Below, one piece after another: positions 3,129 to 6,521 of a stretch of DNA of 10,407 nt. Within the stretch, counting starts at the first letter, position 1, and every line of letters starts with the position of its first letter. The translations under genes and the position numbers were made by a program. Source of the stretch: a virus (lineage: Duplodnaviria; Heunggongvirae; Uroviricota; Caudoviricetes); the IMG/VR virus record IMGVR_UViG_2563366840_000004; one strand, 5' to 3'. Below the pieces are notes generated by a model. That model was not told the origin of the DNA, ran no database searches, and worked only from the letters and a program-made list of their open reading frames with translations.

Positions 3129-6100
3129 ATGGAAAGAAAAAACGCCAACATTGACGATGTTATAAGGACAGTTGAAACCGCCAGTGCAAAAGAGCTGGAA
3201 GAGCTTGCAGGTATCCGGGAAGCTGTTGAAGATTTGAAAGGGGGACGCGTTGCAACTGTTGATCCTGTCTCTCGCAGTGTGTCGGCATTAAATCGCACAA
3301 TCGAAAATTCCCGGCCAGACTTTGTGGCCAATGCGCCATCAGTGGACCCTATTGTTGAGGCAATGAAACGGCTTAATTTAGGGGACGTTTCTCGTGTAGT
3401 TCAGGAAGATGTTGCTCAACAGGAACAGCGGGCCAAATCAACCACACCAAAGGGTAAAAAACGACGCAGGAAGGCTATACCAGAGGATGTAAAGGCACAA
3501 CGGACCGAAGCAGCCGAACACGCTCGCGAAATGTTCGGTCAAAAAGGCGGTGCGCAAAAAAGCCAAAACCAACGCGATGCGCGTGGTCGTTTTATTGGAA
3601 AGTCAGGGAGTAAGGCCGCAGCGGAAGATGCCCGTGCTGAACGAGCAGAAAAGGCCAGGCGAAAAGAGGATGATGAGCGTCTAAATGCTGAATCAGGTTT
3701 ATTAAAAAAACTGTCAAAAGTAGCTGAAGGCATAGGTAACCCTTCAGAGACTCGTGCTGTCGATGCGTTAGGTTATGCCGTTGCAGGTCCATTGTGGGCA
3801 GCAGGGAAGGAGCTTGGCGGGATATCAAAAGAAGTTGGCGGATCGCTTAATGGTGCCAGAAAGTCTATTGCCGATGTGATTCGTGGCAATGACGATAACA
3901 GCCGTAGAAAAGGTTTTTTTAGGCGTAAATCGCAAATTAGTGCCGATGTCGTTCAGGTTAACACCCAAAAACGGACGGTTCAGGAACTTCAGGAGCAGAC
4001 CAGCGAAATTAAAGAGGGCAATGACAAGATTCTCAGCGCCCTTGATCAGATAGCCAAAAACACCGGGAAAAAGAAGGGCGGCTTGCTGTCCAAACTATTT
4101 AGCCTGTTAGGGAAGGGGGCCGGTGGCGTCGCGTCGTTGTTAATGGGGCGTGGCATGCTGAAAAAAGCTGGAGCACTCGCTTTTGGCGCTCTGGGGGCAA
4201 AGAAACTTGTAGGAATGCTACGCGGTGGTGGTAAGAAGACTCTCGCCCATGAAGGCGGAGATTTGGCTGCCCGGGCAGCAGGTAAACTTGGATTAAAGGC
4301 AGTTGGTAAAGGGGCGTTACGCGCAATTCCCCTAGTCGGCACAGTGGTTGGAGGTATTTATGATGCGGTAACCGGTTGGAATGATACAGAAGCGCAACGT
4401 CGAGCGTTTGGGCTTAAATCAGGACAAGATCCATCATTCCAGCAAAAAGCCGCTTATACGTTAGCTAATATTCTTGATATGGGGGGACTGGTATCTGGTA
4501 TTAGCAGCGCCATTGGTGAGGTTCTCAAATCACTTGGATTTGAGGATATCGGCAATATGTTGCAATCATTTTCGACGGAAAGTATTGCCCATGCCATTGA
4601 TAGTGGGATTACCAACTTAGAAACATATATTTCTAACCTTGGCGACACCATTTCTACCAAGTTCGATGATTACACAGCAAAGATTGGTGATGCTGTTTCA
4701 GCATGGTTTAGCGATACATCTAATAAGCTGCTTGAAAAGCTGGATGCCATCAAAGACTTCTTTACTGTCGATAACCTGAAACAGGTTTTCAGTGATGCAA
4801 TTGATAGTGCAATTGATTTCATTAAGAACCCAGGGAAACACATTAAAGAGGCGGCTGGTAATATTTGGGATGGGGTTAAAAATTTACCAGGTAAAGCATT
4901 AGATGCAGCGGTTGATGCCGTTAAAAATACCCCTGCGGCAATGATTGTATCAAAAATACCCAATCCGATCGGCGAGGCTAATGCGAAAGAAATCACTCCA
5001 GAGTTAAAAGCTCCGGTTAATAGCCACCAGGAGACATCTGATTCTAAAACTGAATCCGATGCCAAACAGACTAATATTGTTACCCGCGTGATAAATGCGG
5101 CACTGGACACGGCGAAAGATAGCAATAAAACAGTTAAAGAAACTGCTAATCAGATTATCAATGCAAATGCCGTAGAAACGGGCAATAGCGCGTTGCAGAA
5201 AATTGATAAAGCTATTGGTCAAAATAGCTCGTCATCATCGTCGCTTAATACCACTGGCACCAGGAATGACATTCAGAAAGCTGCGGATACCTACAACAAT
5301 GGCAACTTGGATGTAAAAGTCGGAAGTCTTGGCGCTGAAGGTAAGGCAAATCTCGATAAGTTGGCTCCGTATTTTGCCGAACTAGAGAATAAATACGGTC
5401 TTCCAGAAGGCACTCTTTACGCGATTGCTGCAACTGAATCTGGTGGTAATCCGTATGCAAAATCCCAAACCGGTGCTCTGGGGATGTTTCAGTTCACGGG
5501 GATTGCTCGTGAAGAGACTGGCTTAGCTGAAGGTGAATCGTTTGATCCTGTGAAATCGGCAGAAGCTGCGGCTCTTCTCATGAGCAAATATCTGAAGCAA
5601 GCCAATGGAGACTTAAACGAGGCCATCACTGCATATAATGCTGGGTTTGGCACTATCAATAAGTGGAAAAAAGGCACAGGTGACTTATCGAAAGAAAACC
5701 GTGAGTACGCGATCAAGGTCAATACTCATCGTGCTCGCTATTTAGGTGGTGAAATCTATACACCTGGAGCAGGAGCACAGGGTGGGGCGCAATATGGAGT
5801 GAGGGGACCACTGCCTGATAACGCTGTTATCGATCAGTCTACTGGCCTGGCGTTTACCCCTGGTGATAGCCCGTTTGAGAAAGGCGGTCTGGTAGACAAA
5901 ATTGGCAATGCTGTTGGCGTTAACGATCTGGTCAACAAATTCATGAATGGCCGGGGTATGCGTCGGGAAGTCGTTCAGGGAACGCTCGAAGAACGTGCAC
6001 GAGGGAAGGGGACCGCAACAGCAGCTGGCAATGTGTATGTTGATACTCCGATGCCAGTTGAAGAGGCGCGTCCGGTGGCCAGCAACTCAAGTTACTTTGA

Positions 6101-6521
6101 CCAACTCGGCGCACAAATGGGGATTGATGGGCTATTTGATAAACTCCGCAACTCGCCGGGGATGCGGAAAAATAATGCGCCTGAACCAGCCTCCACGTCC
6201 CAGGTGACGACTGCCGCCAACGATTTGCAGCAACCAACCGGTCGTATGCAGATAGACGGACAGGTTATTAGTGACCTTGGCGGCTCCGGTGCCAAGCCGA
6301 CAATGCAGTTGGCTGATAATACCGTTTCACTTGATGGTGAAACGAAGCGGCTGTTTGCGCAGATGACCTCATTGCTTGCCAGGATTGAAGAGCACACTAA
6401 AGACTCGGCGAAAGGCCAGGGAACTGTCGTAAAGGTCAGCACGCCTCAACCGGGCGTTATGCGCACGGTGCCACTGTCAATTGATGATCCGTTGATGAAT
6501 GACTACGCGAGAGTTGATTGA
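3129..6521 (+). CDS. sit: Tape-measure / structural injection transglycosylase-like protein (Sit-like), 1130 aa
   Basis: 3.4-kb ORF with a charged K/R-rich N-terminus (PKGKKRRRK), a Gly/Ala-rich hydrophobic segment typical of tape-measure proteins, and a C-proximal domain with the lytic transglycosylase signature (ATESGGN ... GALGMFQF ... AITAYNAGFG). Size and context match P1 Sit as I recall it; the symbol is assigned by architecture, not by alignment. Confidence 0.8.
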   Translation: MERKNANIDDVIRTVETASAKELEELAGIREAVEDLKGGRVATVDPVSRSVSALNRTIENSRPDFVANAPSVDPIVEAMKRLNLGDVSRVVQEDVAQQEQRAKSTTPKGKKRRRKAIPEDVKAQRTEAAEHAREMFGQKGGAQKSQNQRDARGRFIGKSGSKAAAEDARAERAEKARRKEDDERLNAESGLLKKLSKVAEGIGNPSETRAVDALGYAVAGPLWAAGKELGGISKEVGGSLNGARKSIADVIRGNDDNSRRKGFFRRKSQISADVVQVNTQKRTVQELQEQTSEIKEGNDKILSALDQIAKNTGKKKGGLLSKLFSLLGKGAGGVASLLMGRGMLKKAGALAFGALGAKKLVGMLRGGGKKTLAHEGGDLAARAAGKLGLKAVGKGALRAIPLVGTVVGGIYDAVTGWNDTEAQRRAFGLKSGQDPSFQQKAAYTLANILDMGGLVSGISSAIGEVLKSLGFEDIGNMLQSFSTESIAHAIDSGITNLETYISNLGDTISTKFDDYTAKIGDAVSAWFSDTSNKLLEKLDAIKDFFTVDNLKQVFSDAIDSAIDFIKNPGKHIKEAAGNIWDGVKNLPGKALDAAVDAVKNTPAAMIVSKIPNPIGEANAKEITPELKAPVNSHQETSDSKTESDAKQTNIVTRVINAALDTAKDSNKTVKETANQIINANAVETGNSALQKIDKAIGQNSSSSSSLNTTGTRNDIQKAADTYNNGNLDVKVGSLGAEGKANLDKLAPYFAELENKYGLPEGTLYAIAATESGGNPYAKSQTGALGMFQFTGIAREETGLAEGESFDPVKSAEAAALLMSKYLKQANGDLNEAITAYNAGFGTINKWKKGTGDLSKENREYAIKVNTHRARYLGGEIYTPGAGAQGGAQYGVRGPLPDNAVIDQSTGLAFTPGDSPFEKGGLVDKIGNAVGVNDLVNKFMNGRGMRREVVQGTLEERARGKGTATAAGNVYVDTPMPVEEARPVASNSSYFDQLGAQMGIDGLFDKLRNSPGMRKNNAPEPASTSQVTTAANDLQQPTGRMQIDGQVISDLGGSGAKPTMQLADNTVSLDGETKRLFAQMTSLLARIEEHTKDSAKGQGTVVKVSTPQPGVMRTVPLSIDDPLMNDYARVD
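4071..4378 (+). other. Glycine/alanine-rich hydrophobic segment within the Sit-like protein (putative membrane-interacting region)
   Basis: Translation KKGGLLSKLFSLLGKGAGGVASLLMGRGMLKKAGALAFGALGAKKLVGMLRGGG...IPLVGTVVGGIYDAVTGW, with repeated small-xxx-small (GxxxG/A-like) spacing. Confidence 0.6.
5355..5676 (+). other. Lytic transglycosylase (SLT, family 1-like) domain within the Sit-like protein
   Basis: Motifs E-S (candidate catalytic Glu codon GAA at 5436-5438 in ATESGGN), GALGMFQFTG and AYNAGFG in the canonical order and spacing. Confidence 0.75.

Follow-up and report, generated by a model that had tools for sequence, protein, structure and literature searches.

Sit is annotated in the genome records of bacteriophages P1 and P7 as a [quoted passage not shown] [quoted passage not shown] In the cryo-electron microscopy (cryo-EM) study of P1, Sit is listed as the tape-measure protein, itself unresolved, and low-resolution density is described inside the center of the baseplate (PMC12810830). 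Here, we analyzed a stretch of 10,407 nucleotides (nt) from a virus of the Caudoviricetes (IMG/VR record IMGVR_UViG_2563366840_000004), called the window below, with a focus on its open reading frame (ORF) at positions 3129 to 6521. Sequence identity establishes this ORF as sit from a myophage (Punavirus) of the P1/P7 kind, and its product is very probably a tape-measure/injection protein of the P1/P7 type that acts by the favored mechanism of loading, ruler function, ejection, glycan cutting, and DNA passage. The sit gene, its SLT domain, and the tape-measure/injection role are already known and published. Our second proposal is more tentative, and we hold it to be somewhat short of an even chance: the locus would have two features that we did not find described, namely, a longer product of the upstream gene pmgB made by a +1 shift at UUU_C and a module at aa 396 to 490 of Sit that would act at the membrane or hub in DNA entry, with the lysin as an exchangeable cassette.

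Identity and parts of Sit

The ORF is the only long one on the plus strand over this interval and runs from an ATG start to a TGA stop (1130 codons). By megablast, it is 97 to 98.7% identical over all 3393 nt to the sit genes of JL22, P7, and P1. Over its full length, the encoded protein shares 98% identity with P7 Sit (AAQ07509, 1130 aa) and 97% with the Sit of P1 (AAQ14011, 1140 aa), and phrog_2533 matches it across residues 1 to 1130 of 1130. An identical protein is already present at NCBI (WP_001569346.1) and belongs to a cluster, drawn at 90% identity, that has 2330 members, and at least 80% of the window is carried by more than 400 plasmid records. The P1 and P7 proteins are thus orthologues that share with this Sit the operon, the promoter, and the SLT motifs and, in the case of P7, the length. 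They differ from it by about 2% substitutions, and where the sim genes would adjoin the operon, the window has IS1 and a piece of the chromosomal gene yigE.

The only insertion or deletion relative to P1 Sit is a 10-residue insertion in P1 (TLTRSPNGKL), located between the ES and GMFQ motifs and missing here and in P7. The differences from the P1 allele are grouped at aa 776 to 808 (positions 5454 to 5552, in the SLT domain and including the 10-residue indel) and at aa 1003 to 1020 (positions 6135 to 6188, in the C-terminal variable region), which suggests mosaic recombination between sit alleles and not even drift. In three P1-like phages, phi456, vB_EcoM-673R5, and vB_EcoM-813R1, the megablast match to sit starts at query base 103, indicating that the first ~34 codons of the gene (positions 3129 to 3230) are diverged or replaced in some relatives.

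A sequence-only reading of this DNA had described the ORF product as a tripartite tape-measure/injection protein. Every feature it listed was recovered where it had been placed or a few bases away, and its functional reading is in agreement with the annotation and the literature discussion of the orthologous P1/P7 Sit. Its SLT domain and its tape-measure/injection role hold, while its glycine-zipper membrane helix does not. The tripartite scheme itself is too simple, since conservation gives at least seven parts: the basic region near the N terminus, the spacer of low complexity, the conserved core module (aa 396 to 490), a helical part, the SLT domain, a region that varies, and the conserved ~95 aa at the C terminus. 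The charged N terminus was found in the basic region (aa 76 to 200), which holds 32 K/R against 21 D/E residues and has the KKRRRK cluster at aa 110 to 115 (positions 3456 to 3473).

The SLT domain, first noticed from its ES/GMFQ/AYNAG signature, was matched clearly by the Pfam profile SLT (PF01464; E=8.9e-27, 93.4 bits against a cutoff of 21.3) over profile positions 2 to 115 of 117. The outcome named as refuting the sequence-only reading on this point, a profile search that lacks an SLT match, did not arise. The motifs are ATESGGN at aa 768 to 774 (including E770 and S771), GMFQ at aa 785 to 788, and AYNAG at aa 835 to 839. A search of PDB sequences led to MltC, in which the IES motif lies under the ATES of Sit and AYNGG lies under AYNAG. 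Judging from these alignments, the domain is a member of the lytic transglycosylase family, with E770 as the candidate catalytic glutamate. The bacterial enzymes MltC and Slt70 (Pfam SLT, family 1) share with Sit the fold family of the catalytic domain and the ES...GLMQ...AYNAG motifs. However, the relationship concerns only ~110 of the 1130 residues of Sit, and Sit is a virion component, whereas MltC and Slt70 are housekeeping periplasmic enzymes. The serine run reported between the central region and the SLT domain is present as well; from the serine content, ~1e-4 runs of this type (Ser6) are expected.

We then considered the Gly/Ala-rich segment (aa 315 to 417, positions 4071 to 4378), for which repeated small-xxx-small spacing and membrane insertion or channel formation had been suggested. 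The segment contains 25 G, 18 L, 16 A, 13 K, and 4 Arg in 103 residues and has a net charge of +14. Its Gly-plus-Ala content (42/103) equals the maximum of 2000 whole-protein shuffles (mean, 33), and the richness in these residues is therefore a real compositional outlier. This enrichment could fit a glycine-zipper transmembrane (TM) segment that oligomerizes into a periplasmic or inner-membrane DNA channel, and the two most hydrophobic windows of Sit fall in or beside the segment. Gly-rich hydrophobic stretches also occur in the tape-measure proteins of other phages, and glycine-zipper motifs were reported for some Burkholderia tape-measure proteins (PMC10240207). In phage lambda, gpH* is ejected, forms at least part of the trans-envelope conduit, and has its C terminus held by a hub protein (PMC12617516).

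Nevertheless, we regard a zipper channel as unlikely for Sit. The small-xxx-small spacing was found 20 times, where shuffling the segment gave 17.8 ± 2.5 (P=0.25), and GxxxG was found 3 times where 5.6 were expected. Of the canonical glycine-zipper motifs (Kim et al. 2005), (G,A,S)xxxGxxxG was absent (0 against 2.26 expected from shuffles) and GxxxGxxx(G,S,T) was present once (1.57 expected). The best Kyte-Doolittle window of 19 residues in the whole protein reaches 1.37, under the usual threshold of 1.6. Apparent insertion energies, on the scale of Hessa et al. 2005, were at least +4 kcal/mol (best, +4.1; range, +4 to +7). No run free of D, E, K, and R exceeds 17 residues anywhere in Sit, and the longest in the Gly/Ala-rich region, which holds 17 lysines and arginines, has 13 to 14 residues. 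In distant relatives, the stretch equivalent to aa 315 to 395 is an Ala/Lys/Glu-rich low-complexity spacer and not hydrophobic, and its positions are poorly conserved (105 relatives). The conserved part that follows, with its invariant Asp, Gln, and Lys residues, is unlike a simple TM helix.

Structure prediction with AF2 gave, for full-length Sit and a shallow alignment of 22 sequences, a mean pLDDT of 37.7, with aa 311 to 419 as coil at pLDDT 22 to 28, and for aa 380 to 520 (11 sequences) a mean pLDDT of 44.5, with aa 401 to 415 helical at pLDDT ~40. The homologue searches for the alignment returned almost only fragments of close relatives, and both models are too low in confidence for deciding between helix and disorder in the Gly-rich segment. 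The popular reading that a Gly-rich stretch means a membrane helix fails the simple tests of spacing and hydropathy on Sit.

Searching 1.84 billion representative proteins with aa 1 to 740 of Sit yielded 161 relatives, mostly of 700 to 1500 aa. Residues ~390 to 450 were covered in 118/118 distant relatives mapped onto Sit, and coverage dropped to either side. The module delimited in this way (aa 396 to 490) follows the pattern AxRAIPxxG..YDAxxG..D.E.Q..FGLK.G..QK..ANvLDMGGLVSG..LG..GF..L..F..A, with P401, D412, G416, D419, Q423, F427, Q439, K440, D450, G452, and G453 being near-invariant. The Gly/Ala-rich segment is therefore two things, an unconserved spacer (aa 315 to 395) and the first ~20 residues of the core module, which runs for ~70 residues further. 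The module had no sequence match in Pfam, NCBIfam, or PDB, and its profile gave only chance-level matches against PDB sequences (E ~0.7 to 0.8). Among isolated phages, it was found only in those of the P1, JK004, and D6 types. Its family-average hydropathy, computed from the column table, is low (~1.1 to 1.2), and the acidic and polar residues that are invariant in it favor a domain that folds or makes contacts over a simple membrane span; it is conceivable that the element is marginally hydrophobic and becomes active on membranes under certain conditions. Across the relatives, the module is found anywhere from about residue 240 to about residue 700, indicating that the N-terminal part varies in length, as expected for a ruler.

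The second conserved part is the C terminus. Residues 1035 to 1130 match the extreme C termini of distant relatives, including some for which no SLT match is reported here (for example, P0075, P0080, and P0081). By analogy with other tape-measure proteins, these ~95 residues are probably held by the baseplate hub, which is consistent with the low-resolution density inside the baseplate center (PMC12810830).

Coliphage D6 illustrates how the parts can be combined. Its "tail injection transglycosylase" (phrog_7182; D6 gp40) lies, like Sit, after a pmgB homologue and is 27% identical to our Sit in the N-terminal region, 42% in the core module, and 27% in the C-terminal ~95 aa. The D6 protein is longer (~1216 aa), and in place of the SLT domain it has an endolysin-like enzymatic domain (D6 aa 644 to 785; PDB 7q47, E=7e-17). 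This swap points to a scaffold that is conserved and a muralytic cassette that can be exchanged. The same D6 residues also match the 1295-aa "Gp29" chain in 9vvp.

Sit as a probable tail tape-measure protein

The genomic position of sit is that of a tape-measure gene: it lies directly downstream of pmgB, which is chaperone-like and has a conserved extension in the +1 frame, and upstream of the baseplate genes pmgA, bplA, and 16. The frameshift-type extension of pmgB, as in tail chaperones, supports the tape-measure assignment of Sit.

The mechanism that we consider most likely is the published one. Sit would be made late, from the promoter LPsit, and the chaperone-like PmgB encoded upstream would help thread it into the growing tail tube. 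Its C-terminal ~95 residues would be held in the baseplate hub, and the long N-terminal part would line the lumen of the tube and help fix the tube length. Upon contraction of the sheath, Sit would be expelled ahead of the DNA. The SLT domain, with candidate catalytic Glu770, would then cut glycan strands locally, and the remainder of Sit, with the module at aa 396 to 490 as the most plausible part, would help the DNA cross the periplasm and the inner membrane. The identity with Sit, the match to the SLT family, the occurrence in virions, and the essentiality are shown, and the ruler function, the ejection, the place of hub anchoring, and any activity at membranes are inferred.

Similar arrangements are found in other phages. 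T5 pb2 and Tmp of mycobacteriophage TM4 carry peptidase or Rpf-type motifs. As Sit is proposed to do, both combine a long ruler in the tail lumen with a peptidoglycan-degrading domain towards the C-terminal part, and this comparison has been drawn explicitly (PMC9024508). Unlike them, Sit has an SLT (GH23-type) domain and belongs to a contractile-tail phage, and no homology to either protein was detectable outside the lysin domains. Lambda gpH/gpH* is a tape-measure protein with a Gly-rich region, as Sit very probably is, and offers a model for how Sit might act. It has no enzymatic domain and is proteolytically processed, and no sequence similarity to Sit was found. Channel formation by Sit is hypothetical.

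The ruler step is weaker than usually stated, and several observations weigh against it or against the reading as a whole. No curated tape-measure family was matched by Sit or by 8 relatives in Pfam (E<=1) or NCBIfam (E<=1e-3), nor was one in PDB; the only "tape measure" families that overlap the relatives are those of PHROG, and the overlap is at the lysin region. In the P1 literature examined, we found neither an experiment with length mutants of Sit nor a verification of its muralytic activity. The AF2 models are too low in confidence (pLDDT 38 and 44) to demonstrate a helical rod; in the full-length model, 296 of the 740 N-terminal residues are helical, and Quick2D is reported to give mostly helix (PMC9024508). 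In the P1 tail, 53 rings were counted for the sheath and 52 for the tube (PMC12810830).

Length is a further difficulty. At 1.5 Å per residue, as a pure alpha-helix, Sit spans 170 nm with all of its 1130 aa and 111 nm with only the 740 aa that precede the SLT domain, against a tube of ~208 nm (52 rings at an assumed rise of ~4 nm). The ring rise of ~4 nm is borrowed from other myophages. Per tube ring, Sit provides 21.7 aa, below the tape measures of lambda and T4, which have roughly 26 aa per ring. The 2022 study took the tail as 120 nm and found agreement with the length of Sit (PMC9024508); tail length thus differs by source, from these 120 nm to the 52 rings of the 2026 study (PMC12810830), which at ~4 nm each make up ~208 nm.

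Gene 6 mutants also alter tail length (PMC9024508). These variable tails, together with the missing family match and a number of residues per ring that is too small for a plain alpha-helical ruler, could mean that Sit is only a tail-tip lysin/injection protein and that tail length is set otherwise, for example, by gp6 or by the tube-sheath subunits. We consider this improbable. The gene 6 product has only 338 aa and is a homologue of the hub proteins T4 gp27 and Mu gp44 (PMC9024508), and Sit is the only long protein that the tail operon encodes. The length that is missing could come from extended, non-helical stretches, such as the low-complexity spacer, although this way of closing the gap is speculation.

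The least probable alternative, to which we give very little credit, is that Sit, in the manner of T7 gp16, would be an internal core protein that is kept in the head or neck and ejected from there, with no role as a tail ruler. T7 gp16 also has an SLT domain, JL22 and the P1 records of the MH4455380 type carry the labels "internal (core) protein" and "protein inside capsid D", and phrog_342 ("internal virion protein with endolysin domain") matches the SLT region. However, the phrog_342 match is confined to the SLT domain (aa 748 to 865), sit stands in the tail operon with tube and chaperone genes before it and baseplate wedge genes after it, the upstream gene has a frameshift architecture of the chaperone type, and the cryo-EM density attributed to Sit lies inside the baseplate center (PMC12810830). 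Overall, we retain the tape-measure/injection reading of Sit.

A candidate +1 frameshift in pmgB

The gene upstream of sit, pmgB, is essential for tail formation, and its product was proposed to be the tape-measure chaperone (PMC9024508). Overlapping its 3' part, we found an ORF in the +1 frame that is open from position 2785 to 3117. Entry into this frame would give a product of 316 aa (PmgB') beside the 293-aa PmgB, ending 11 nt before the sit ATG, with LWVPFGLPTSFHR as the predicted tryptic peptide across the junction. The +1-frame peptide has the form ...PFG[IL]..SF....L..Q[TI][LI]V.NL.LYG..P..D...L.....K..K.KR* and is conserved in Cronobacter phage JK004, in D6 of Escherichia coli, and in a diverse set of 15 viral contigs, the PmgB proteins of which are only 39 to 73% identical. 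In these relatives (L003, 5159 to 5452; L004, 5237 to 5437; and L078 to L111), the extension passes the frame-0 stop by 55 to 121 nt and ends just before sit. P1 has the same site and the same extension.

The point of frame change could be bracketed to positions 2941 to 2978 by stop codons in the relatives: the +1 frame is closed up to the window equivalent of 2940 in four of them (L089, L090, L091, and L109), and frame 0 is closed at 2976 in L090. Within this bracket, TTT_C (positions 2946 to 2949) is the only invariant slippery element. It is mostly followed by CGG, or by CTC in the D6 clade, and often preceded by CCC. In line with a change of frame here, the substitutions between the window and JK004 fall at third positions of frame 0 up to ~2945 and at third positions of the +1 frame afterwards.

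Three other explanations of the conserved peptide were rejected. An independent small gene in the +1 ORF has no conserved start: the ATG of JK004 is ATA in P1, and the D6 and L089 types have no ATG, GTG, or TTG before most of the conserved peptide. A -1 shift was discarded as the -1 frame is short and not conserved. Finally, a -2 slip on GGGGG (positions 3022 to 3026) does not qualify as a general site, given that the run is absent in the D6, L087 to L091, and L109 types and that frame-0 stops lie upstream of it.

Strong comparative evidence thus indicates that pmgB is probably subject to programmed +1 frameshifting of the kind (G/GT) seen in tail chaperones. In the simplest model, tRNA-Phe would slip by +1 from UUU to UUC, giving PmgB'. 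The parallel is the G/GT frameshift of tail chaperones, of which pmgB would be a rare +1 version. The extension is unannotated in the P1, P7, and D6 records, and JK004 has only a 29-aa ORF annotated there. The study that proposed PmgB as a chaperone contains no mention of a frameshift outside its reference list (PMC9024508), and a text search for pmgB and frameshift, which did not cover the original P1 genome paper and Xu et al. 2004, returned nothing relevant; the novelty of the frameshift is hence uncertain.

The extension also touches on the start of sit in D6. In the D6 record (L004, MF356679), the annotated sit ATG at locus position 5331 overlaps the conserved pmgB +1 extension (L004 5331 to 5463). 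The D6 N terminus that resembles P1 Sit (KENKDRIAIIDAIQEAS... versus MERKNANIDDVIRTVETAS...) starts at a TTG at ~5463, after a GAGAGG Shine-Dalgarno sequence. From this comparison, the annotated start of D6 sit is probably ~44 codons too far upstream.

The tail operon, its surroundings, and significance

The features of the window are collected in the table. Gene order is identical to that annotated in P1 and P7 (pmgC-tub-pmgB-sit-pmgA-bplA-16-R-S). LPsit is intact, and the stretch through the promoter and the start of pmgC is almost unchanged from P1 and P7. The cryo-EM study of P1 names PmgC the adaptor and Tub the tube initiator (PMC12810830), and PmgA was assigned as a wedge protein by HHpred (PMC9024508).

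Table. Coordinates of the features in the window
Feature	Positions	Strand	Basis
Late promoter LPsit (-22 box, -10), drives the pmgC-tub-pmgB-sit operon	913..931	+	Near-identical to P1 and P7, which annotate LPsit
pmgC (P7: tubA), tail/connector adaptor	963..1529	+	Position as P1/P7 pmgC/tubA; phrog_1851, E=2e-102
tub (P7: tubB), tube-family protein, tube initiator	1540..2151	+	phrog_1842 "tail tube protein", E=1e-106
pmgB (P7: tubC), 293-aa frame-0 product; probable tape-measure/tail assembly chaperone	2166..3047	+	P1/P7 annotation, PHROG match
Candidate +1 site TTT_C (2946-2949) and 55-codon +1-frame extension (2950-3117, TAG stop)	2946..3117	+	Comparative
sit, structural injection transglycosylase/very probable tail tape-measure protein, 1130 aa, P7-type allele	3129..6521	+	nt and aa identity, exact NCBI protein
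Basic, charged region of Sit, aa 76-200, includes KKRRRK	3354..3728	+	22-30% K/R per 50-aa window
Gly/Ala/Leu/Lys-rich low-complexity spacer, aa 315-395	4071..4313	+	Biased composition, no zipper periodicity
Conserved core module, aa 396-490	4314..4598	+	Column analysis of distant relatives
Ser6 run (SSSSSS), aa 700-705, linker before SLT domain	5226..5243	+	Allele-variable, LSSSS in P1
SLT lytic transglycosylase domain, aa 748-857; candidate catalytic Glu E770 (codon 5436-5438)	5370..5699	+	PF01464, MltC alignment
Conserved C-terminal ~95 aa (aa 1035-1130), probable baseplate-hub anchor	6231..6518	+	Matches in distant relatives, D6 Sit
pmgA (P7: bplB), inner baseplate wedge protein like T4 gp25	6521..6877	+	P1/P7 annotation, PHROG match; start overlaps sit stop

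Upstream of the operon, positions 1 to 95 come from within the chromosomal gene yigE (a fragment with 100% identity, found in 5303/5426 E. coli genomes), positions 96 to 863 are an IS1 element with insA and insB, and P1 sequence runs from 864 on, beginning just downstream of the simC end in P1. The yigE fragment, IS1, and P1 DNA in series indicate that the tail operon is joined to chromosomal DNA through IS1, a fusion that arose when the phage DNA integrated or a co-integrate formed. On the IS1 side, the superimmunity genes (sim) are absent. A similar junction is present in a 454-kb E. coli plasmid record.

The sit ORF itself is a rediscovery of a textbook phage gene and adds little; only the pmgB frameshift and the conserved module merit further work. 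The frameshift might bear on the weak complementation of a pmgB deletion by cloned pmgB, although complementation was weak for pmgA and pmgC as well (PMC9024508). If true, the +1 frameshift would lend strength to the tape-measure role assigned to Sit in P1, for which the evidence is still indirect. For the family as a whole, the parts that are conserved in Sit-type proteins are a 95-residue module with no domain annotation and the C-terminal ~95 aa, while the lysin is swappable.

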